Origin: an uncultured Atopobiaceae bacterium
GTDB lineage: Bacteria; Actinomycetota; Coriobacteriia; Coriobacteriales; Atopobiaceae
NCBI GenBank assembly: GCA_963539685.1
Contig: CAUTMX010000003.1
Location: 15,313-39,312 of the forward strand
Length of the DNA: 24,000 bases
Direction of reading: 5' to 3'
How positions within the stretch are numbered: the stretch's first letter is position 1; each line of letters begins with the position of its first letter. The position numbers and the translations under genes are program-made. Of the stretch, positions 207 through 9,206 are shown piece by piece. The notes beneath the pieces were generated by a model, which made no database searches, was not told the origin of the DNA, and saw only the letters and a list, made by a program, of their open reading frames with translations.

Positions 207-1871
207 CTAATCGAATCCTGGAAGTCTTTCTGTATACTCGCTTGATGATTTAACATTCCAAGAACGGCCGAATAACTTTTGAGAGCTCGACAATTTCAAT
301 ACAACCGATTCATCAATAATGGACTTTGTGTCATTTTGATAATGTTGCACATTATCAAAAGATATAAAGACTTGTTTTGTTTGCTCAGAATATAGTCTGA
401 TGATTTTAGAGATAGTAGAGTCTTCAATATCGTTGAACATAAATGAGTCATGTGCTATGGCTGGTAAAACAGTAAGATTTAAAAGTGCAACGTCAAAAAG
501 AATTACACTTCGTTGATTTGCTCCCGTTCCACTGTCATGTGGAGTTTCGTATTTATATGATGTGCTGCTATTTATAAATAAGCGTGGTGAGAAATGGTCT
601 AATCCAATAATTTTATTGTTTAACTGAGAGAGTTCGTTATTGAGAGAATCTTGAATGTCTTGAATTATAGACGTATAAAGCGTCTCTTTAGTTTTATTAA
701 GCTCAATCTTAAGATTCTTAGAAGAATGCCATTCTTTCCAAAGGTCAATTTTTCTTTGAAGGCTGTCAATCTCTTTTTCAATTTTTATAATTTCGTCTAT
801 GAAATCAGTTGCGTAAATGGTTTTTATTGGTAAGTTATCCAACTGCTGATATAGAGTCGATAACTCTTCAGTAAGATTTATCGACTCTTTCTGCACTAAG
901 GTCTTTTCATATTGGAAGTCTTCTTCAAGAAGCGTAAACAATTTTTGATGAAAAGATTCAATTTGAATCAATAATTTTAGATTCACGCCAGGGAAAAAAT
1001 TAGCAAACTCCTCAAGTTCATCTGAACTAATAAACGACTCAAGATGATCTGATGAATCAAGAATTCTTTTTCTTTCATTAATGATTTTAAGCTGTAATTT
1101 TGTATTGTTAATTTTATCTTCTAAGAGCTTTTTCTCTTGATAAATTTTGCGATCCGTCGCGTCAGGAATTTTTGATTGATTTGATTCAAGTTGAAAACGC
1201 TTGGACTGTAATTGAATAATTCTTTGTTCATACTGCGCTATCTTCGCACTAGATTGTGGAATCTTTTTAATTTCTTTATGTAAATATTCAAAATAGTTTA
1301 GCTTCTTTTTATTTGTCGCCAATGTATTGTTAACTTCTTCAAGTTTTTTATATCTATCAAATAGCTGAATTAGACTTATTAAATTTTTCTCTTTACTAGA
1401 TGGAAAAGGAGGCTCTAATGGATCTTTAGTTTTTAAGTTGGACTTTTCAGCTATCCTAAAATGTGAGCTAATAGCTGTTCTAAAAACAGCTTCATTCTCA
1501 ATAAACTGATACTTAAGGGCAAGAAAATGAACATACTCAGGATGATCTAGAATCGTTTCGACAGATTGATAAGTATCGCTGTATTTCTTTATCTCATTTG
1601 GTTTGTCCGTAGAACGAGAAAAACGAAATACTTCTTCATTAAATTTAAAAGCAAAAAATATCTCATGATTATCAAGATGCTTTACAGCGTCCGATTTGGC
1701 ATATGAATTTCCGCCATAAACAAAGTCCAATATCAATAATGATGTAGACTTTCCGATAGAATTAGAAGCTCCTTTTTCTCCTAGAATCACGTTAAGTCCT
1801 GAGCGAAATTGAATATGTTTTTCGGCCGTGTTAGCCTGTGGAATAGCGGGAGACCATAATTCTAACAGCAT
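207..1871 (-). CDS. Coiled-coil ABC/SMC-type ATPase, LmuB-like / DUF2326-like (ATPase component of a Lamassu / ABC-three-component-type system)
   Basis: 554-aa ORF. The N-terminus has a Walker A-like GEKGASNSIGKST followed by LLILDFVYGG. About 300 aa of K/E/Q/L/N-rich sequence in the middle is typical of a coiled coil. The C-terminus has an ABC-signature-like DSGTGANQRS and a Walker B-like LPAIAHDSFMF. Its ATG overlaps the stop of the upstream 86-aa gene by 10 nt (ATGCTGTTAG), with GAGG 8 nt upstream. Confidence 0.7.
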   Translation of the reverse strand: MLLELWSPAIPQANTAEKHIQFRSGLNVILGEKGASNSIGKSTSLLILDFVYGGNSYAKSDAVKHLDNHEIFFAFKFNEEVFRFSRSTDKPNEIKKYSDTYQSVETILDHPEYVHFLALKYQFIENEAVFRTAISSHFRIAEKSNLKTKDPLEPPFPSSKEKNLISLIQLFDRYKKLEEVNNTLATNKKKLNYFEYLHKEIKKIPQSSAKIAQYEQRIIQLQSKRFQLESNQSKIPDATDRKIYQEKKLLEDKINNTKLQLKIINERKRILDSSDHLESFISSDELEEFANFFPGVNLKLLIQIESFHQKLFTLLEEDFQYEKTLVQKESINLTEELSTLYQQLDNLPIKTIYATDFIDEIIKIEKEIDSLQRKIDLWKEWHSSKNLKIELNKTKETLYTSIIQDIQDSLNNELSQLNNKIIGLDHFSPRLFINSSTSYKYETPHDSGTGANQRSVILFDVALLNLTVLPAIAHDSFMFNDIEDSTISKIIRLYSEQTKQVFISFDNVQHYQNDTKSIIDESVVLKLSSSQKLFGRSWNVKSSSEYTERLPGFD

Positions 1872-2122
1872 AGTTCAACCTCATTATCCTCGTTTAATCT
1901 GATTTCTCCTAGTGCATACAGTTCGTCCAATGCTTGTAAAAAAGATGCAAGTTCAATTCCTTTTTCTTGATGCAATAAGTGGAAAAGAGTTTTTGGTGAA
2001 CATGAATTTGATCTTAGGGATTGTTTAATCTGATAAATCCACATCATATCACTCTCACTAAACGAATAGATTTTATTGGGGAGTTTCACTTTAATCACCT
2101 TTTGGTATTTCAAATACATCAC
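1862..2122 (-). CDS. Small middle-component protein (LmuC-like / ABC-3C middle component), 75-86 aa
   Basis: This small ORF is wedged between the effector-like gene and the ATPase and overlaps both. The track start is GTG 2122. An alternative GTG at 2089 lies 1 nt after the upstream TAA (2091-2093) and 6 nt after an AAGGTGA Shine-Dalgarno, so it may be the real start. The helical C-terminus FLQALDELYALGEIRL fits what I recall of middle components. The assignment rests mainly on size and position. Confidence 0.5.
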   Translation of the reverse strand: MMYLKYQKVIKVKLPNKIYSFSESDMMWIYQIKQSLRSNSCSPKTLFHLLHQEKGIELASFLQALDELYALGEIRLNEDNEVELCC

Positions 2123-3248
2123 AGTTTTGGATAAAAAAAGAAACTACTATTCGACAAACAGAGTCACTTTGATTACTTATGTTTTTAAAATAATCAACTA
2201 GCTGAATAAAAATTTCTTCTTGGGAGTTACTTTTATCTCTTAGCTGTAAATACTTCAGCCTAACACTGGCTTGAAGTAGCTCATATTTAATATCACCCTT
2301 TTCATCTAATTGTTTAATAATATTGCGTACAAATAAGTACGTCCTTTTTACTAAAGCCTCAATCTGAATTTTGTTTCCGTAATCGAGCGAAGAATCAAAT
2401 TTTTCTGAGGGTTTGACCGGACTTTTAATTTCGTTATTTTCGATATGTAGGCCTATATTGGATATTTGAGTCAACAACTCACTAATTGATTGATCAATGC
2501 TTGTCTCCAAGAGGAGATTTTGCATTTCATTTTGTGAGATATGGCTTTGTTTTAATTTTGTGAAATATTCTGTTTGCTCTGATGAAAGATGCCCTTGTAG
2601 TCTTTCAAAACAGAGCGGACAGACCGCAATTAAGTTTTCATACCGCCCTGCTTTGGTTTTTGTTTTCATTTTTAAATCAATTACTTGGAAATTATTAATA
2701 GTTCTATTTTTATCTATATAAGCTAATAGAGTATTGCAGCCTTTGTTCATACATATGTTATTTGCATCTCTAAGGAGATAAGCTCCAAATTTATCTATGT
2801 AATCATTTGACAATTCTAATAAAGGCAATTGATTGTTTCTGATGTTCCTTTGATTATTCGTAGGAATACCTAACAGAAGGAAAAGCAAGCGAATAATTTT
2901 CTCTGCAAAATTATTCGCTGAAACATCAGTTAAGCCAAGTTGAACTGTGCAATCTTTAAAAAATACCGCTTTTGCAGTCCTATTCATCTGTTCAAAGTGT
3001 CTTTGCATTGAGTTTTTAAGTTCAATATAAGAAATCCTGGAAGATATTTCGCTCACTATACGCTTCGGGAGGCTCCTGTTAATCCAATTTTTTAGAGTGT
3101 AGTCAGGATAGTTGACTATTAAGTCAGTTTCATTGTTGGAACAAGTAGTTATCTGAGTAATAAGTGTACGTAGATAAGCAACCCTTGATCTATCGTCACT
3201 AAAATATTTATACATGAATTCAAAGAAGCTTTTCCACGACTGATTCAT
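2091..3248 (-). CDS. Effector-like first gene of the three-gene operon (LmuA position). It has a central 4-Cys HNH-like/zinc-ribbon motif and no catalytic domain I can recognise.
   Basis: 385-aa ORF with AAGGAG 9 nt upstream of ATG 3248. The central motif is C-MNKG-C, then about 38 aa, then ENLIAVCPLCFERLQGH. The rest is predicted helical, and the C-terminus ends CRIVVSFFIQNCDVFEIPKGD. The stop overlaps the next gene. Confidence 0.55.
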   Translation of the reverse strand: MNQSWKSFFEFMYKYFSDDRSRVAYLRTLITQITTCSNNETDLIVNYPDYTLKNWINRSLPKRIVSEISSRISYIELKNSMQRHFEQMNRTAKAVFFKDCTVQLGLTDVSANNFAEKIIRLLFLLLGIPTNNQRNIRNNQLPLLELSNDYIDKFGAYLLRDANNICMNKGCNTLLAYIDKNRTINNFQVIDLKMKTKTKAGRYENLIAVCPLCFERLQGHLSSEQTEYFTKLKQSHISQNEMQNLLLETSIDQSISELLTQISNIGLHIENNEIKSPVKPSEKFDSSLDYGNKIQIEALVKRTYLFVRNIIKQLDEKGDIKYELLQASVRLKYLQLRDKSNSQEEIFIQLVDYFKNISNQSDSVCRIVVSFFIQNCDVFEIPKGD

Positions 3249-3487
3249 TTTCTCTAACTCTCCTTAAAAAGTGAACCAAATGAATCTACTTGAATCTTTC
3301 TATTTGAATGAGTCTTTTATTCTATAAGCGCTTTCAAAACAGATTCTTAAACATGTTCATCAGCTTTCTTAAAAGGAGGCCATATGTAATAGGATAATAA
3401 AAAATGATAAAAGATTTAAGTATCTTTTATCTGATTTCGGTAAATGGTGCATTTCTAGAGTGCTTCATTCGTAGTCAAAATCTCGTT

Positions 3488-3578
3488 AGGAAGACCATCT
3501 GATTTAGCGCGGAGTTAATAACTCCGCGCTATGAGTAGTCTTCCTTATAGCTCAGTGGTCTTCCTCCTTTTGGAGGAA
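3488..3578 (+). promoter_or_regulatory. Structured 5' leader of the regulator gene: nested long hairpin plus a Shine-Dalgarno-sequestering hairpin
   Basis: AGGAAGAC (3488-3495) pairs with GTCTTCCT (3538-3545). These arms enclose a perfect GC-rich 11-bp stem, AGCGCGGAGTT / AACTCCGCGCT (3506-3516 / 3520-3530). A second GTCTTCCT copy lies at 3558-3565. TTCCTCC (3561-3567) pairs with the SD GGAGGAA (3572-3578) across a TTTT loop, 2 nt before ATG 3581. Confidence 0.5.
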
Positions 3579-3580
3579 AA

Positions 3581-4156
3581 ATGAAAAGGGATTACTCAGT
3601 ACTAATTTCAAGTGAAGACAATAATGCTAGTAGCTTTCCAAAGCAGAAAAAGTTAACCATCAGTAAGAAGGAAATGCAGCAATATGCCAATCGACATAAT
3701 TGCGGCAAAAGCAAACGTGAACTAACTTTGTGTCTATCTATTTTACAGAATGCGCTAAATAGTATTTCAAAAGACGAGCTAAATCAATCCAAGTCCTATT
3801 TTCGTCAGGACAGGAAATACTCTTCTATTTGCTCAATTTCAGAAGAGAGTCCTAACCAAAATGAGGCGTTATTTTACAAAGTTATTATACCTTCTGCCGA
3901 AGATGAGGTGATTCAACAAGAAAATGAAAAGCAGATAAAAACTTTAGCTCAGAAAATCACAACATCAGCACAAGAATTTCTGACTAAAAAAGAGATAGAA
4001 GTGTTTAGACTGCACTTCATCGAACATATCTCTGCAAGTTCGATTGCTGATAAAACCAACAGATCTAGGCCGGCTATTACAAAATTAATAAAATCCATCC
4101 AAAGGAAAATGAAAAAAAGATTTGAAGATGCCTGGGAAAAGATCATCGTGGAATAA
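3581..4156 (+). CDS. Small DNA-binding regulator with a sigma-70 region-4-like helix-turn-helix at the C-terminus
   Basis: 191-aa ORF with a strong GGAGG SD. The C-terminal LTKKEIEVFRLHFIEHISASSIADKTNRSRPAITKLIKSIQRKMKKRF follows the sigma70_r4 / LuxR-type HTH pattern (L-x4-r-x-vf-x-L ... s-x-x-eIA ... v-x-x-x-l-x-r-x-x-x-k). I see no obvious region 2 in the N-terminal half. Confidence 0.6.
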   Translation: MKRDYSVLISSEDNNASSFPKQKKLTISKKEMQQYANRHNCGKSKRELTLCLSILQNALNSISKDELNQSKSYFRQDRKYSSICSISEESPNQNEALFYKVIIPSAEDEVIQQENEKQIKTLAQKITTSAQEFLTKKEIEVFRLHFIEHISASSIADKTNRSRPAITKLIKSIQRKMKKRFEDAWEKIIVE

Positions 4157-4203
4157 AAGATACATCTTAATTAGCCCTCATAAAGATAGTTAGTTAGTTG
4201 GAA

Positions 4204-4839
4204 CTATCCCTTGCCCATTGAGATGATGAACAAGGGATAGTCCCCATGTTCTTGATTGATTATTTTTTCAACTTCTTGATTTGTAGTAATGCGCCCGATT
4301 CCATTATTCCAGGTGACATGCCAGTCACAGTAAAGGACTGATTTTTCAGGTTCTTGCGGAGGTGTATATATCCCACCAATCATTTCTCCCTCGCAAATGG
4401 GTGATGGCATTGAATAGAACCACACATTATCTGAATATTCATCAGTAAAAGTTACACATGCAATTTGAGTCTCAGGATTAGGGGTGTCACATTGGACCCA
4501 TTTAATACTTCGGGGGTTCAAGCTCCCAGTAAAAAGAATATATATAATCAATGCAGACATAGGTATTATCGCAATGGTTTGTAAAACGGTGTGCACAAGT
4601 TTTCTACTATAGTTTAAAGACTCAAAAAAGCTGCGAGATGACACGATTAAAAAAATGACTATAGCCGCTAAAATAAAGCATACCATCCAGTGTCTAAAAA
4701 ACAATACTCCTAAAAAACACACTGGAGTAGGATATGTTATGAACGGAATGAATTCATTTGCATAGAACACGAGAAAGAGAGCTGCTAAATAAATGGCCGC
4801 TCTTAGTAAATGAACAAGGCGATTAGTCTTTGAAAGCAT
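4204..4839 (-). CDS. Integral membrane protein (about 4 TM helices plus a ~100-aa C-terminal soluble domain), paralogue A
   Basis: 211-aa ORF with four long hydrophobic stretches in residues 10-110, then a W/C/P-rich soluble tail. It shares length, topology and the motif Y-x-TPV-x-FLG-x-L (ITYPTPVCFLGVLF) with the 212-aa ORF at 7893-8531. Confidence 0.7.
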   Translation of the reverse strand: MLSKTNRLVHLLRAAIYLAALFLVFYANEFIPFITYPTPVCFLGVLFFRHWMVCFILAAIVIFLIVSSRSFFESLNYSRKLVHTVLQTIAIIPMSALIIYILFTGSLNPRSIKWVQCDTPNPETQIACVTFTDEYSDNVWFYSMPSPICEGEMIGGIYTPPQEPEKSVLYCDWHVTWNNGIGRITTNQEVEKIINQEHGDYPLFIISMGKG

Positions 4840-5134
4840 CTCATTACCTCATTCTGCAAGTTTGAGAAATAACATCAATGCTATCTCTACACATCATTAT
4901 AAATAGTTAATTGAAAATAGTCCATCAGTCATCGCTTAGCATAAATCGATAAGTTTATATAAGTTTTTAGGTTAATTCCCTTCCTTTTTCTGTCCTTAGT
5001 TTAGAGACGGATTTGAATTATCAGATTTGACTCAATAAATATGTGATTTGTGTAAGGAGGCAAAAGATGAATCATTAGAGGCTGTGGGATATCGTTCTGG
5101 ATTTTGTAATGAGACGCATAAACAAGGAGTAGAT

Positions 5135-5506
5135 ATGATTGAAAGTGTGAGTAGCAACATTAATCCATTTAGCGTGAATTTTATTAGTACGGAGACACTG
5201 TCTGAATTTAGTACTTCTTATTTTCGAGTAGAGCTCAGATTGGGCATTTACGGAGGTAACAGGTGGTGTTGGGTTAGAGTAACTGTTCGTCGGGGTAGTA
5301 ACATGGAGCCTGGAAGCACTGCTTCAGTATGGACGCCTAAGCGATCTGCGTATGGAGCAAATCATTTGTCTGGAGGAGGCAATTGGTCTCCTGGATCAGT
5401 TTATTGTACAGATGCAATCTCTCTAGGTCCAACGGGAAGAGTTGGTGTTACATATTCAGGTGGCGAGCCTGGAAATGTTCAAAAGAAATCCATTACGGTT
5501 TATTAA
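5135..5506 (+). CDS. Small G/S/W-rich protein of unknown function (123 aa), co-transcribed with the large PG-binding protein
   Basis: ATG 5135 is preceded by AAGGAG (5125-5130). The track's TTG 5048 start has no SD of its own, so it is less likely. The sequence is MIESVSSNINPF...GIYGGNRWCWVRVTVRRGSN...SGGGNWSPGSVYCTD...ITVY. I recognise no signal peptide and no family. Confidence 0.6.
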   Translation: MIESVSSNINPFSVNFISTETLSEFSTSYFRVELRLGIYGGNRWCWVRVTVRRGSNMEPGSTASVWTPKRSAYGANHLSGGGNWSPGSVYCTDAISLGPTGRVGVTYSGGEPGNVQKKSITVY

Positions 5507-5518
5507 TTCTTTAGTAGT

Positions 5519-5544
5519 GACCTCCCCATCAATATGGGGAGGTC
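5519..5544 (+). promoter_or_regulatory. Intercistronic 10-bp GC-rich hairpin between the 123-aa gene and the large gene
   Basis: GACCTCCCCA (5519-5528) pairs perfectly with TGGGGAGGTC (5535-5544) across the loop TCAATA. No T-tract follows, so it is not a canonical terminator. It buries the track ATG at 5534. Confidence 0.5.
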
Positions 5545-5560
5545 GATTGGAGTATCTTCA

Positions 5561-7906
5561 ATGGATGAAATGGTTTTAGCAACTCAAAAGTGGTTGAATA
5601 GAACTTACGTTAACGATAATCGATTTAACCAGGTAGAGGAATCTGGTCATACTGGATGGAACACCATCTTTGGTTTGATTAGGGCACTTCAAATTGAGCT
5701 TGGAATTCAGTTTACTGCTGATAATTTTGGAGAAGGCACAAAAGCAAAGTTTTCTGAGATGTTTCCCAACGGAATAAGTCGTCAAACTTTGGGGAAAAAG
5801 CCAACATCAAATATTTATGCAATTATACAAGGAGCTCTTTGGTGTAAAGGATATGCGGCACATTATGGATCAATTACAAATGTAATTGATGGTGGGACCG
5901 TAGAGTCAATTCTAAAGTTAAAGAATGATATGGGTCTTATTGATTATCAAAACAATTTTGTGGTGGATATCGAGATGATGGGCGCACTCCTTTCAATGAA
6001 GCAATTTAGACTTCTTGCAATGTATGGAGGAAAAACGTCAATACGTGAAATTCAGCAAGAAATTAATCGTCGTTATCGTGAATATACTGGAATTATTCCT
6101 ACTGATGGTATTTATGGTCGCGAAATGAATGAGGCTATGATTCAAGTTTTGCAAGCAATAGAAGGATTTACGCCAGAAGAGGCTACAGGATATTTTGGAA
6201 ATGGAACACGTGCCAGATTAAAAACAATTGATTCAGGCTCTTCAGATTGGGTTTGGCTGGCTAGTTCTGCTCTAGTGTGTAATGGAATTAGAAAAAATAT
6301 CACGCGTTCTTGGTCGTTTGAGTTGAGTGAAGATGTACGAAAATTCCAAGAGAGCTATGCCCTTCCAGTTACTTCTGTTATTGATAAAACAACATGGATG
6401 AGCTTACTTACCTCAAAGGGAGATCCTGATAGAAAATGTGTTGCATGTGATACACGATTTGAAATTACAGATGATTTGGCTTCTTGTTTAAAGGAAGATG
6501 GCTATCGGATTGTAGGAAGATATCTTTGTGAGCCAGATCAAGAAATGACGGCAGAGAATGATTTATTTAAAGCACTTCGAACTGGAGAGCTTGATCGAAT
6601 TGTTAGCTATGGCTTAGAGTACTTTCCTATTTTTCAAATGTATTCAACTAAATTGAATCATTTTTCTTACAGCGAAGGAAAAAACCATGCACTTGAAGCA
6701 GTTAAACATGCAAAACGCTTAGGAGTGCCCAAAACAGTAATATATTTCACAGTAGATTATGATGCAACTGATCCTGAGATAGACAGTAATATCATTCCAT
6801 ATTTCAAGGCATTAAAGGAGAATATACGAGACGGATATTTAGTGGGAATTTACGCTTCTAGAAATATTTGTTCTAGGATTATCCATCATGGACTTGCAGA
6901 AGCAGCGTTTGTATCTGATATGAGTACAGGATATTCAGGAAACCTAGGTTTCTCAATTCCAGACCGATGGGTATTCGATCAATTCACAGAAATTACTGGA
7001 TATAGAGGAAGATGGGATCTTGATAGAGTTGCCTATTCAGGAAAATTTCCAGCTTGTTCGCTAGTAGTTCATAATAGACAAAGTAAGTTTCAGCATGAAG
7101 ATATTATTAATGCTATATCTCAAATTGAGATGATAGCTATAAGAAAGTTAAAGGATTCAATTACAAATCAGCAGCGGTCTAAATTTATCCTTGAGTACTT
7201 GAGAAAACCAAAATATTGGGAAGATGAGAATACTGCTTTGATGTGGCAAGTATATACACCAGAGTCATACGATTCATCTGAAGCAATCTTGAAAGAAGAA
7301 GTGAATAAAATATGCAAATCAATTATTCCGAATCCCGAACAGTTTAAAACTACATATGACTTAGAGCATTTTGCTGCTACAGCTTTAGGGAATATCTGCC
7401 ATTTCGATTCAACATCTTATAATTATTTTATGTTTGCGGATTTAGGTGGTTGGATTTTAGACTTACTTCAGATTTGGGGAGATAGTCAAAGAGAGGGAAT
7501 TCAAAAACAATATTTACCAAATTGGTTATCTGTTTGTCTTGGAAGTAGAGTTATAAAGTCAGGGTTTGGCTATAAAGACTTAATGAGTGACGTAGATGGG
7601 TATCTAGCTGCAGTGATGCTTCATGATGAAGACACTCTTCTTTCAGAGGTTCTTCGATATATATTCTCATTAACACCACTTAACCGCAGATCTCTTTTTT
7701 GCTTAAAGCGATTTAAAGGTGAACGCAAGTGTGTTGAGAGTGTGTTTGATAGTTTGGTTAATGGGCTACCAAGAAAAGAGATCCCATTTTTTGATGCGGT
7801 ACTCTTACGCGCCTCAGCTTCCGATCGACTTCCTGATGAATCTGAATCTAAATATCTCAGTAATGTATTATTTCATGCATTAACTCATGATTTCATAGAC
7901 GGATAA
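5561..7906 (+). CDS. Large leaderless cell-wall-targeting protein: N-terminal peptidoglycan-binding-like repeats, a DUF1906 (Rv2525c-like glycoside-hydrolase-like TIM barrel) domain and a ~280-aa unknown C-terminal domain
   Basis: It is 781 aa from ATG 5561 (GGAG 8 nt upstream) or 790 aa from ATG 5534 inside the hairpin. Repeats such as VLATQKWLNRTY...GHTGWNTIFGLIRALQIELGI..DNFGEGTKAKF and IREIQQEINRRY...TDGIYGREMNEAMIQVLQAIEG resemble PG_binding_1 modules. The central GYRIVGRYL...LRTGELDRIVSYGLEYFPIFQ...GKNHALEAVKHAKRLGVPKTVIYFTVDYD...GYLVGIYASR matches the DUF1906 pattern as I remember it. There is no N-terminal signal peptide. Confidence 0.7.
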   Translation: MDEMVLATQKWLNRTYVNDNRFNQVEESGHTGWNTIFGLIRALQIELGIQFTADNFGEGTKAKFSEMFPNGISRQTLGKKPTSNIYAIIQGALWCKGYAAHYGSITNVIDGGTVESILKLKNDMGLIDYQNNFVVDIEMMGALLSMKQFRLLAMYGGKTSIREIQQEINRRYREYTGIIPTDGIYGREMNEAMIQVLQAIEGFTPEEATGYFGNGTRARLKTIDSGSSDWVWLASSALVCNGIRKNITRSWSFELSEDVRKFQESYALPVTSVIDKTTWMSLLTSKGDPDRKCVACDTRFEITDDLASCLKEDGYRIVGRYLCEPDQEMTAENDLFKALRTGELDRIVSYGLEYFPIFQMYSTKLNHFSYSEGKNHALEAVKHAKRLGVPKTVIYFTVDYDATDPEIDSNIIPYFKALKENIRDGYLVGIYASRNICSRIIHHGLAEAAFVSDMSTGYSGNLGFSIPDRWVFDQFTEITGYRGRWDLDRVAYSGKFPACSLVVHNRQSKFQHEDIINAISQIEMIAIRKLKDSITNQQRSKFILEYLRKPKYWEDENTALMWQVYTPESYDSSEAILKEEVNKICKSIIPNPEQFKTTYDLEHFAATALGNICHFDSTSYNYFMFADLGGWILDLLQIWGDSQREGIQKQYLPNWLSVCLGSRVIKSGFGYKDLMSDVDGYLAAVMLHDEDTLLSEVLRYIFSLTPLNRRSLFCLKRFKGERKCVESVFDSLVNGLPRKEIPFFDAVLLRASASDRLPDESESKYLSNVLFHALTHDFIDG

Positions 7907-8531
7907 GATTTGTATGTATGGGGAAAGAATTAAATTCCGTTAGAGTTTCAATGGCATCTGAGTTTGTAGTTGTAATGTCATATTGGTTATTCTCATGAAC
8001 TAGTAGCCACTCAATATCTTTAGTTGGTACTGAGTGGCTATATAACCTAATAGTTGCTATATTTTCTCCCAAACCGAATGGAAAACGTAAAACATAAAAA
8101 TGGAGAGTTTCTTCTGCTCCAAAATCAAAATCCTCAAGTAAAACAACTCTGGATAATGAAATTTCTCCAGTATTTACTACAGATTTATAATCACGTTGAC
8201 AGGAGTAAATGCAAGGAATGAATAAAAATAATGCTGCACAAAAAGCAACAGAAATATTATAAATAGCAAAAAGGTAAGTTGCTTTTTTAAAAAAAACAAC
8301 CATAGATTTTATTTTAGAAAACAGCATTAGTGAAGTTATCAGAATGAAAATAGACATAAGAAATAATGCCTGTGGTATTGTCAACAAAGTGCCAAGAAAG
8401 CTCACTGGAGTATTATAATCAAGTGAGAAGAAAGAGAAATTTGAGAAGAAGAAATAAACCACTGCCAGGACGCAAATAACAAAATATACGAAGCAAATTA
8501 CCGTGATAAAAACCCCTTTTGACCTGTCCAT
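7893..8531 (-). CDS. Integral membrane protein (about 4 TM helices plus a C-terminal soluble domain), paralogue B
   Basis: 212-aa ORF with the same architecture as 4204-4839 and the shared motif LDYNTPVSFLGTLL. Its 3' end overlaps the 3' end of the convergent large gene by 14 nt (7893-7906). Confidence 0.7.
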   Translation of the reverse strand: MDRSKGVFITVICFVYFVICVLAVVYFFFSNFSFFSLDYNTPVSFLGTLLTIPQALFLMSIFILITSLMLFSKIKSMVVFFKKATYLFAIYNISVAFCAALFLFIPCIYSCQRDYKSVVNTGEISLSRVVLLEDFDFGAEETLHFYVLRFPFGLGENIATIRLYSHSVPTKDIEWLLVHENNQYDITTTNSDAIETLTEFNSFPIHTNLIRL

Positions 8532-8732
8532 CGCGATATCCTATTCTGTAGGTAGATAAAGACATTTCAGTAGAATTTTGCAAACTATTGTATATAAGTA
8601 AATCAAAAGAGTCTATAGCTAAATACAGGGTCTTCTTCATCAAATTCACTGCCAAAGGTTAATTCTCTAAACATTTCTGTCTTTATTTTAAAGGTTACAG
8701 TAATGAGTAAATTAACATAGAAAGGAGGTGCA

Positions 8733-9127
8733 ATGATTGGAAGATGCATTGTATTTTTAATTGCGGATAAATTTAACCAAGGATTGACTATTTTTATTGC
8801 AAACTACGCTTTATTAACATGCGGTTTGATTTATGTATTAGCTCTAATAGCCTAGTTACCATATATAGCTATACAAATCGTAAGAAATTAACTTTGAAAT
8901 TTATTGAAACGGTGATAACAAAAAAACTCCTTATTGTGGGAGTCGTTATACTTTCGGCGCTTTTTGACCTTCTCGCAAAAATCGGCCCTATTTCTATGGT
9001 TCAAATTACAATGACATTCTATATTGTTGAAGAAAGTATGTCTGCAATAAAAGCTTTAAAGAAGCTTGGCATAAAAACACCTGCTAGATTAGTTAAACTA
9101 ATAAAAGAAAAGCTTAATGACAAATAG
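8733..9127 (+). pseudogene. TcdE / phage_holin_4_1-family holin, apparently split by a frameshift near 8845-8860
   Basis: AAAGGAGG then ATG 8733 opens a 40-codon ORF (MIGRCIVFLIADKFNQGLTIFIANYALLTCGLIYVLALIA*, one TM helix) ending at TAG 8853-8855. A different frame (track ORF 8819-9127) continues with ...YSYTNRKKLTLKFIETVITKKLLIVGVVILSALFDLL...FYIVEESMSAIKALKKLGIKTPARLVKLIKEKL. This matches the family core as I recall it from TcdE (..SRKFNSSFG..G.RK.. TM ..D.. ..ILYESVSILKN....GLPVPKRLKEKI). Together the two pieces give the expected ~130 aa and 3 TM helices. Confidence 0.55.
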
Positions 9128-9131
9128 CGTA

Positions 9132-9206
9132 TGGTGCCCCCAACGGGAATCGAACCCGTATTGCCGCCTTGAAAGGGCGATGTCCTAACCGTTAGACGAT
9201 GGGGAC
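9132..9206 (-). tRNA. tRNA-Glu (anticodon UUC), 75 nt, CCA encoded
   Basis: The reverse complement reads GTCCCCATCGTCTAACGGTTAGGACATCGCCCTTTCAAGGCGGCAATACGGGTTCGATTCCCGTTGGGGGCACCA. The acceptor stem is GTCCCCA/TGGGGGC. The anticodon stem TCGCC/GGCGG carries the loop CTTTCAA, giving anticodon TTC. The T arm is ACGGG-TTCGATT-CCCGT. Confidence 0.9.

Follow-up and report, generated by a model that had tools for sequence, protein, structure and literature searches.

What is the function of a gene cluster in which a large wall-binding protein lacking any secretion signal is bracketed by two small membrane proteins and followed by a phage-type holin gene? The question is raised by positions 3581 to 9127 (here, the module) of a 24,000-nucleotide stretch of DNA from an uncultured Atopobiaceae bacterium (assembly GCA_963539685.1, contig CAUTMX010000003.1); this whole stretch is referred to below as the window. 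The original prediction, made from the letters and their open reading frames (ORFs), set a domesticated or decaying phage lysis cassette beside what it considered the more interesting option, a holin-dependent secreted bacteriolysin with membrane proteins acting as immunity or export factors. ORF calling recovered every ORF then listed for the module, each at its listed position. Here we present evidence that favors, with somewhat better than even confidence, the interpretation of the module as a bacteriocin-like toxin/immunity cassette, in which a leaderless, wall-binding, TelC-like toxin would be paired with a convergently encoded membrane immunity protein and released by lysis.

The large protein is leaderless and has three parts

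The large protein, the probable toxin (5534..7906, + strand), has 790 amino acids (aa) when translated from its first ATG and is matched over its full length by the PHROG family phrog_15213 (1e-279). The family alignment begins at M10 (5561), which yields a protein of 781 aa, the approximate size originally proposed. We found no hydrophobic leader at its N-terminus (MGRSIGVSSMDEMVLATQKWLN) or in the family consensus, and neither Pfam and NCBIfam searches nor inspection of the N-terminus revealed a trafficking domain (LXG, PAAR, Rhs, signal peptide and similar). Residues ~10-295 (5561..6418, + strand) comprise peptidoglycan-binding repeats and are the most conserved part of the family; PG_binding_1 (PF01471) matches residues 255-290 at 2.3e-10 (40.9 bits, against a gathering threshold of 23 bits) and the earlier repeats appear only as "faint" precomputed matches. 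Residues 318-486 (6485..6991, + strand) form an Rv2525c-like (DUF1906, GH25-like) TIM barrel, matched by Rv2525c_GlyHyd-like (PF08924) at 2.7e-43 (148.8 bits, gathering threshold 27.2 bits), by PDB entry 1SFS (1.9e-6) and by the PHROG endolysin family phrog_13480 (3.5e-17).

The protein database holds ~1,850 homologues of the large protein. All 120 of the matches listed have the Rv2525c-like domain, nearly all of these 120 have PG_binding_1, and most carry a precomputed assignment of their C-terminal part to PF27189 ("YkzU"). Their hosts are mainly Actinomycetota (Arcanobacterium, Rothia, Bifidobacterium, Gardnerella, Schaalia, Mobiluncus, Atopobium and Collinsella), together with Clostridia. 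Between loci, toxin residues 1-505 are 50-79% identical and the C-terminal domain mostly 10-30%. A literature search on YkuG, YbfG, YkzU and DUF1906 returned no functional study.

The C-terminal domain weakly resembles TelC

The C-terminal ~286 aa (7046..7903, + strand) were modeled by AlphaFold2 as a wholly helical unit with a pLDDT of 87.3 and a pTM of 0.87, a model that indicates a real, separately folding domain. The original prediction was right about the PG_binding_1 repeats, the DUF1906 barrel and the missing leader but called this domain unknown; it carries the precomputed Pfam assignment PF27189 "YkzU" and is probably TelC-like. When the model was compared with the PDB by Foldseek, the top match, a weak one, was TelC of Streptococcus intermedius (5UKH), with a probability of 0.84 against 0.09 for the runner-up.

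The TelC family belongs to the Lipocone superfamily, and its signature consists of a histidine in helix H2 preceded by xD, an aspartate in H4 that is followed by another at the sixth position downstream, and an arginine that sits in a C-terminal helical extension and pairs with the latter aspartate (PMC12419801). We aligned 32 C-terminal domains that are 14-33% identical to that of the window and numbered their residues by the full-length protein. H612, G670, D682, D686 and R718 are invariant in these divergent domains, and D609 and D688 are near-invariant (at least 90% conserved). On the model the conserved residues map to helices 106-119, 176-194 and 211-223 (fragment numbering). The D609-x-x-H612 string lies on the first of these helices and agrees with the prok-TelC H2 histidine and its upstream xD, while D682, D688 and R718 lie on the other two and agree with the H4 aspartate, the aspartate at +6 and the arginine of the extension; D686 is an additional invariant residue beyond the published signature. 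D609, H612, D682, D686, D688 and R718 are therefore our putative active-site residues for an all-alpha, TelC-like domain predicted to be a lipid II or polyprenyl-phosphate head-group phosphoesterase. Because HMMER, given either the 32-domain profile or the single sequence and allowed E-values up to 10, did not recover TelC from among all PDB sequences, we regard the prok-TelC-like assignment as well supported, though short of proof; the published unification of the TelC family used more sensitive profile-profile and structure methods (PMC12419801).

TelC is a lipid II phosphatase toxin with an aspartate-rich active site; it does no harm in the cytoplasm but is toxic once exported, and calcium-dependent cleavage of lipid II or undecaprenyl pyrophosphate is a property known for TelC only (PMC5555719). 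Its harmlessness in the cytoplasm would explain how a leaderless version is tolerated by its producer. The model, the Foldseek match, the invariant residues and the published signature point to the TelC-like domain, and not only the barrel, as the likely killing domain.

A search of 1.84 billion representative proteins with the C-terminal domain returned 70 matches, most of which are short fragments or lie C-terminally in proteins of ~760-830 aa. We scanned ten matches of atypical length: six have the Rv2525c-like domain and one is fused to LysM; none is linked to LXG or another secretion domain. Two of the ten differ in architecture: in P0122 (557 aa) the TelC-like domain stands behind LysM, which replaces the PG_binding_1 and Rv2525c modules, and P0136 (1096 aa), one of the six, carries extra C-terminal bacterial immunoglobulin (Ig) domains. 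A further variant occurs in Atopobium minutum DSM 20586 (locus L009, 9980-12300), where the homologue stops after the Rv2525c-like domain at 516-521 aa, without a TelC-like domain, and a separate 209-aa ORF comes next; this version is truncated or remodeled.

A hypervariable membrane gene faces the toxin gene

We surveyed 80 genome loci with 10-kb flanks, in which ORFs were called and clustered and membrane helices counted, and used 392 other genes of at least 300 aa from the same loci as controls. The immediate downstream neighbor of the toxin gene is a convergent gene for a small protein with at least two membrane helices in 56 of 78 loci, compared with 18 of the 392 control genes (4.6%; Fisher p = 2e-38, with loci that are not fully independent). 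These partners are ~125-300 aa long and start between -20 and about +120 bases from the toxin stop; most loci without one have a fragmented toxin gene or a neighbor that narrowly misses the helix threshold. The conserved core thus consists of two genes, that of the toxin and one convergent membrane gene. Of the two kinds of neighbor that the original prediction proposed to look for beside the homologues, small membrane proteins recur, and the ~120-aa partner is very rare.

The partners themselves are highly diverse. Their 58 distinct sequences fall into 29 unrelated BLAST clusters, and none of the 58 matched a Pfam family. We considered whether these small convergent membrane proteins might be holins and rejected the idea, as 0 of 58 match a holin family and both their orientation and their arrangement in arrays of paralogues are at odds with it. 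Two tandem copies occur in three loci (L011, L036 and L057), and in a fourth (L059, 7106-9800) the toxin gene is followed by five tandem paralogous small membrane genes. L025 and L034 each encode a fusion of two partner units, a single 270-aa protein with 7-8 predicted helices, and in L033 dispersed partner paralogues flank the toxin gene on both sides, as they do in the window.

Two pairs of loci show how the two genes move. The toxins of Schaalia turicensis (L047) and Mobiluncus curtisii (L053) are near-identical to residue ~776, beyond which their last ~53 residues (~777-829) and the whole downstream membrane gene (a 157-aa type in one, a 149-aa type in the other) are replaced by unrelated versions, which places a clean recombination breakpoint in the extreme C-terminus of the toxin. 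In the second pair, Actinotignum schaalii (L048) and M. curtisii (L053), the cassette alone is shared (9691-13318 in L048, 98% identity); it runs from ~300 bases ahead of the toxin gene to the end of the membrane gene, and the flanks are unrelated. Joint replacement of a toxin tip and its neighboring gene is classic behavior of a toxin/immunity pair. The locus family also has other hallmarks of polymorphic toxins, namely a conserved N-terminal region, a divergent C-terminal region, an adjacent co-varying gene and extra paralogues; a recognizable trafficking domain is the hallmark that the large protein lacks. The convergent membrane gene is thus probably the immunity gene for the toxin, and the swap suggests that the last ~50 toxin residues probably determine which immunity protein fits. 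Of the two roles first suggested for the membrane paralogues, immunity is the one favored by the linkage, the hypervariability, the arrays and the exchange of tip together with gene, from all of which we infer the function.

TM1 and TM2 in the window

The convergent partner in the window is TM2, a membrane protein of 212 aa (7893..8531, - strand) and the candidate cognate immunity protein, the 3' end of which overlaps the 3' end of the toxin gene by 14 bases. TM1, a polytopic membrane protein of 211 aa (4204..4839, - strand), is its paralogue and a candidate second ("orphan") immunity protein. The two proteins are collinear and 20% identical (E = 0.007), a repetition at a distance of 3.68 kb takes in both their 5' coding ends and the regions upstream (repeats D1 and D2), and the DNA upstream of each is duplicated (4969-5006 versus 8656-8693, 76% match); by these alignments they are true paralogues. 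The two had been described as paralogous opposite-strand proteins of four helices each that bracket the toxin gene and its small partner. Their paralogy, strand and bracketing position are as described, but a crude hydropathy count gives four helices for TM1 and three for TM2.

A promoter-like site lies ahead of TM1 at 4924-4896 on the - strand, and the convergent membrane gene likewise has a promoter-like site of its own. The charge distribution of TM2 predicts that its ~105-aa C-terminal domain faces outward. Neither protein matched a family in Pfam, NCBIfam, PHROG or PADLOC, and no homologue of either was detectable outside the Atopobium loci, even at E < 10. TM2 has ~3 helices and, directly after helix 3, a C..C..D..N string (PCIYSCQRDYKSVVN), features that were compared, by description only, with those of the 3TM-CCDN protein; that protein is defined by three membrane helices and by two cysteines, an aspartate and an asparagine in outward-facing loops (PMC12419801).

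The holin gene is a rare accessory

TM2 is followed by a gene for a Phage_holin_4_1 (TcdE-type, PF05105) holin (8733..9127, + strand), which is frameshifted in the window. Its ORF at 8819-9127 (102 aa) matches PF05105 at 8.9e-10 (39.1 bits, cut-off 22.2 bits) and covers only positions 35-112 of the 116 in the model. We aligned the DNA with that of sister loci L001, L003, L005 and L007, one sister contig being 98.6% identical to the window, and found that the window is missing one A of an AAA run at ~8846, which breaks the frame. Since all seven sister loci (L001-L007) have an intact holin of 131-133 aa with a start equivalent to window position 8733, the window copy is either a frameshifted gene or a sequencing error. 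The original call of a TcdE-family holin behind the toxin gene pair therefore agrees with the partial Pfam match but overlooked the break.

The NCBIfam model TIGR01593 gives the Atopobium holin 31.7-34.8 bits (31.7 for the intact L001 form), below its cut-off of 40.2 bits, and is passed by a holin of Timonella at 76.3 bits. In Timonella sp. A28 the order is sigma-like gene, small partner, toxin, convergent membrane gene, holin and Amidase_2, and the group adjoins an integrase remnant. Among 117 downstream neighbors examined across the loci, the gene in the window is the only Phage_holin_4_1 match. The holin is a rare accessory that probably releases the toxin; that a strain with a broken copy may keep its immunity and release poorly is speculation.

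Prophage contexts and the lysis cassette alternative

About 25 of the contexts, or roughly a quarter to a third of the loci, are prophages, and 57 IMG/VR viral contigs also carry homologues. These numbers lend some weight to the view that the module is an ordinary or decaying phage lysis cassette, with the large protein as endolysin, the holin as its partner and the membrane proteins as regulators of the holin/antiholin type. So do the properties of the large protein, which is leaderless, wall-binding and probably wall-cutting, adjoins a Phage_holin_4_1 gene and has a GH domain that matches PHROG endolysin families, and so does the succession of holin and Amidase_2 genes in Timonella. The position of the pair in the prophages argues otherwise. 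It lies between an HNH or ArpU/DUF1492-type late-activator gene and a DUF1706 or small terminase gene, with methylases and TerL further on; it thus precedes the small terminase and does not follow the tail genes. This slot is a typical position for accessory genes at the start of the late region and is not a lysis module. In a lysis cassette, moreover, holin and endolysin genes would be adjacent, co-oriented and at the end of the late block, but in the module a convergent membrane gene separates them.

Other copies stand outside prophages altogether, as in Lachnobacterium bovis, where a free-standing pair sits amid housekeeping genes, between a tRNA methyltransferase gene and the Tpt1 gene. 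Because prophage copies precede the small terminase and others are free-standing in the chromosome, the distribution differs from one confined to prophages with tail or capsid genes alongside, which the original prediction had named as the mark of an ordinary endolysin. A tblastn search of 50,697 phage genomes gave two weak partial matches only, in a collection that samples the phages of these hosts poorly. The 58 membrane partners, without a match to any holin family among them, are convergent, hypervariable and often duplicated. Finally, a TelC-type domain with a co-swapped tip has no role in a plain endolysin. Taking both sides together, we judge a lysis cassette to be unlikely.

The prophages that carry the cassette are mobile across genera. 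One prophage segment is 88-100% identical in DNA over ~11-22 kb in seven genera, Mobiluncus, Actinobaculum, Gleimia, Varibaculum, Trueperella, Arcanobacterium and Bowdeniella (L053, L067, L050, L055, L077, L051, L040 and L046), an unusually broad spread. Prophage-type loci also share a conserved, non-coding leader of ~400 nucleotides between the HNH gene and the toxin gene (9585-9994 in L067, with equivalents in L077, L031, L062, L025, L047 and L040), which appears among the ORF clusters as spurious conserved "ORFs" (cluster c36) and moves with the cassette in L048. The leader has no Rfam match, evidence for a structure is weak, and we found no convincing covariation in it (RNAalifold covariation term -0.16).

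The regulator and the small Ig-like partner

The 191-aa regulator (3581..4156, + strand) has a C-terminal helix-turn-helix of sigma-70 region-4 / YlxM-like type, recognized by Pfam, NCBIfam and PHROG profiles. Pfam UPF0122/YlxM passes its cut-off (1.5e-6) and PHROG sigma factors match at ~1e-5; Sigma70_r4 remains below its cut-off (0.033) and NCBIfam sigma70-ECF reaches 22.2 bits against a cut-off of 42.9 bits. Neither Pfam nor NCBIfam matched sigma region 2, and the C-terminal helix-turn-helix is the only part detected. The label sigma-70 region-4-like was thus a fair one, but a full sigma factor is not indicated, with region 4 below threshold and region 2 unmatched. Membership in the family of the TcdR/UviA sigma factors, to which the original prediction likened the regulator, is likewise unsupported, because region 4 alone is detectable and is sub-threshold. 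Region-4-type regulators are nonetheless the commonest family within three genes upstream of homologues, where 119 ORFs from 44 loci include seven matches to Sigma70_r4_2, six to Sigma70_r4 and three to DUF1492/ArpU-type phage late activators. Timonella, Collinsella and Gardnerella/Helcococcus prophages have comparable regulators upstream of their homologues. Outside the conserved core, the sigma-like regulator is a common accessory, and in the window it is probably the activator of the module.

The small partner protein (5135..5506, + strand) is encoded by an ORF (5048-5506) that opens with TTG; its homologues begin at the ATG at 5135, which confirms the predicted length of 123 aa. It is leaderless and was modeled by AlphaFold2 as an all-beta, Ig-like sandwich of 10 strands (pLDDT 80.7), and its best PDB matches are the Ig-like domains of the adaptin-ear/GAE type (E = 1.7e-3, TM-score 0.4-0.56). 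A profile search found 10 relatives among 5.8 billion proteins, and an earlier k-mer-seeded search had found only the protein itself. In Timonella, Atopobiaceae and A. minutum a copy of the partner gene precedes that of the toxin, and the partner is a rare accessory of the toxin cassette.

The island and the neighboring ABC-3C system

The module is carried on a foreign island of low G+C content (GC). In a composition scan of the window, positions 207-9130 have 33-37% GC compared with 50-57% for the host DNA, and this block is bounded on the left by the stop of dxs at 201 (ORF 25-201) and on the right by tRNA-Glu(UUC) (9132..9206, - strand), a boundary placed by ARAGORN, Rfam and the GC step. 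No integrase and no phage structural gene were noted among the ORFs of the island, and no flanking direct repeat of the tRNA end was found. The tRNA is the sole Rfam match in the window, and Rfam scans of three prophage loci had zero matches. In oral Atopobium metagenome-assembled genomes the toxin-gene DNA is 95-100% identical and the gene order is the same. Within window positions 5500-8750 the toxin and TM2 genes are 100% identical to those of sister contig L001, whereas the regulator/TM1 region (3500-4750) and the host gene past the tRNA diverge by 2-6%, a pattern that suggests a recent transfer or sweep of the toxin/TM2 segment alone.

Adjoining the module is a complete ABC-3C system (207-3248, - strand) made up of a DUF2326 ATPase, an MC7 middle component and a CTD11 protein. 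The three ABC-3C gene clusters also neighbor homologues of the large protein in A. minutum, Alloscardovia theropitheci and a Gardnerella strain (L009, L018 and L065); given this shared neighborhood in several hosts, the two cassettes tend to travel together. Such company, on a low-GC island, and the prophage position typical of accessory ("moron") genes would also suit an anti-phage or abortive-infection module, in which a cytoplasmic wall and lipid II hydrolase is turned on its own cell once infection disturbs the membrane, and the membrane protein is a sensor or gate. PADLOC, however, had zero matches for every gene of the module, the wall-binding repeats and an enzyme active only on the outside suggest action on other cells, and exchange of tip and partner together with paralogue arrays is typical of toxin/immunity rather than sensor/effector pairs. 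We therefore consider abortive infection improbable.

Discussion

Taken together, the domain content and missing leader of the large protein, its linkage to a hypervariable membrane gene, the paralogue arrays, the joint exchange of tip and gene, and the mobility of the cassette lead us to favor a bacteriocin-like toxin/immunity cassette. The enzymatic activities, release route, immunity function and target in the following scheme are what we infer from them. The 790-aa protein, having no export signal, would accumulate in the cytoplasm, where a TelC-type enzyme is expected to be harmless, and would be released upon a breach of membrane and wall, here by the TcdE-type holin under control of the sigma-like activator and, for prophage-borne copies, by phage lysis. 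Once outside, its peptidoglycan-binding repeats may dock on the wall of neighboring Gram-positive cells and the Rv2525c-like barrel may open or grip the glycan. At the membrane's outer face the TelC-like domain would then cut lipid II or undecaprenyl pyrophosphate at its phosphate linkage, and wall synthesis would stop. TM2 would protect the producer's kin, or lysogens, and with a promoter of its own on the opposite strand it would be made even when the toxin operon is silent. TM1 may be a duplicated second immunity gene, and the 123-aa Ig-like protein an optional accessory. The holin-dependent bacteriolysin of the original prediction thus fares better than the lysis cassette, but in its holin dependence it would apply to two lineages only.

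Several points weigh against this scheme. TelC is matched only weakly in structure (E = 0.21, TM-score 0.36), and we know of no demonstrated hydrolase activity of an Rv2525c-like domain that can be cited. The partners share no detectable homology, so that a common function is attributed to them solely by their position. Linkage of the holin is limited to two lineages (the Atopobium loci and Timonella), its gene is frameshifted in the window, and a protein of ~90 kDa would have to pass a thick wall to reach lipid II. The fusion family as such is known so far from computational description only, as far as the portions of the source used here go (PMC12419801).

The remaining alternative, a self-directed wall-remodeling enzyme (either an autolysin or one that recycles lipid-linked precursors, with the membrane protein as anchor or regulator), is the least probable of the three. 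In its favor, housekeeping wall enzymes include some with PG_binding_1 and Rv2525c-like domains, and Actinomycetota carry the protein widely. Against it speak a patchy and mobile distribution (the flanking prophage is 88-100% DNA-identical across seven other genera), a foreign base composition, the rapid evolution of the C-terminal domain and the partner, and the lack of an export signal.

Extending the toxin/immunity reading beyond the window, we propose, with confidence that falls a little short of even, a widespread class of contact-independent Gram-positive bacteriocins in which fused wall modules deliver a lipid II-cleaving domain. Members would be released from a subpopulation by a holin or by phage lysis, with no secretion system involved, would be countered by hypervariable polytopic immunity proteins with specificity in the last ~50 toxin residues, and would be encoded by a cassette that hops between prophages and islands. 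The hosts of such a class would be, just as tentatively, human-associated Actinomycetota (Gardnerella, Mobiluncus, Atopobium, Actinomyces relatives and Bifidobacterium).

To our knowledge TelC-type lipid II phosphatases are known only as contact-delivered cargo of type VII secretion (the T7SS). How toxins of such size cross a thick wall is a question raised in the original TelC paper (PMC5555719). If our reading is true, the toxin would be a self-sufficient, diffusible weapon with its own wall-binding and wall-cutting modules that needs only lysis for its release, lysogens would gain a weapon against non-lysogens, and the protein could be a template for engineered lysins that strike peptidoglycan as well as its precursor. 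Bacteria of the oral and vaginal microbiota commonly carry the cassette, with near-identical copies in several genera, and it could therefore shape competition among strains there. The convergent immunity-like genes provide a directly testable handle.

In its layout the module is comparable to the operons of pore-forming colicins, which consist of a colicin gene, a polytopic membrane immunity gene on the opposite strand and a lysis gene, and in which lysis of a subpopulation releases the colicin. Gene order and orientation (toxin, convergent membrane gene, release gene) are the same in the module; it differs in having no homology to them, a Gram-positive host, another killing chemistry and a phage-type holin in place of a lysis lipoprotein. 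Holin-dependent release of toxins is known from TcdE/TcdR of the Clostridioides difficile PaLoc, from UviA/UviB and from the holin/peptidoglycan-hydrolase ("type 10") secretion systems. Like these, the module places a leaderless cargo beside a Phage_holin_4_1 holin and a small sigma-like regulator, but unlike in the PaLoc and UviA systems, region 4 of the regulator is sub-threshold, the holin is confined to two lineages and the copy in the window is broken.

The TelC/TipC pair of S. intermedius (PMC5555719, 5UKH) provides the best structural match and a conserved His/Asp/Arg pattern, has its cognate immunity gene adjacent (in the window a candidate one), and includes a toxin that acts only outside the membrane. 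TelC, however, is a T7SS LXG toxin, and the window toxin has no LXG domain, WXG partner or T7SS. The window domain is also fused to wall-binding and wall-hydrolase modules, its similarity to TelC in sequence is undetectable by HMMER, and its candidate immunity protein is a polytopic membrane protein encoded on the opposite strand and unrelated to TipC.

Closest of all is a fusion of peptidoglycan-binding domain (PGBD), Rv2525c-like TIM barrel and prok-TelC domain, reported from 189 loci and predicted to be a conflict system (Burroughs, Nicastro and Aravind, eLife 2025, PMC12419801), which, in the portions of that paper used here, shares with the large protein of the window its three domains (the wall-binding part annotated there as PGBD+PGBD), its occurrence in Bacillota and Actinomycetota, its fast-evolving neighbor genes and its reading as a conflict system directed against the wall and membrane of rivals. 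The three-domain core is thus not new, having been catalogued computationally in 2025, and the original statement that the gene combination was not a described system no longer stands for the architecture of the large protein. The partners named there are a secreted double-Ig protein upstream of some members, the 3TM-CCDN protein (24 loci) and a secreted VanY peptidase; the window has a single leaderless Ig-like domain instead of the secreted double-Ig protein, and its module has no VanY gene. What the present analysis adds, relative to those portions of the paper, is the near-universal, convergent and hypervariable membrane partner, its arrays, the joint exchange of toxin tip and partner, the prophage slot and the island form equipped with a sigma-like regulator and a holin.

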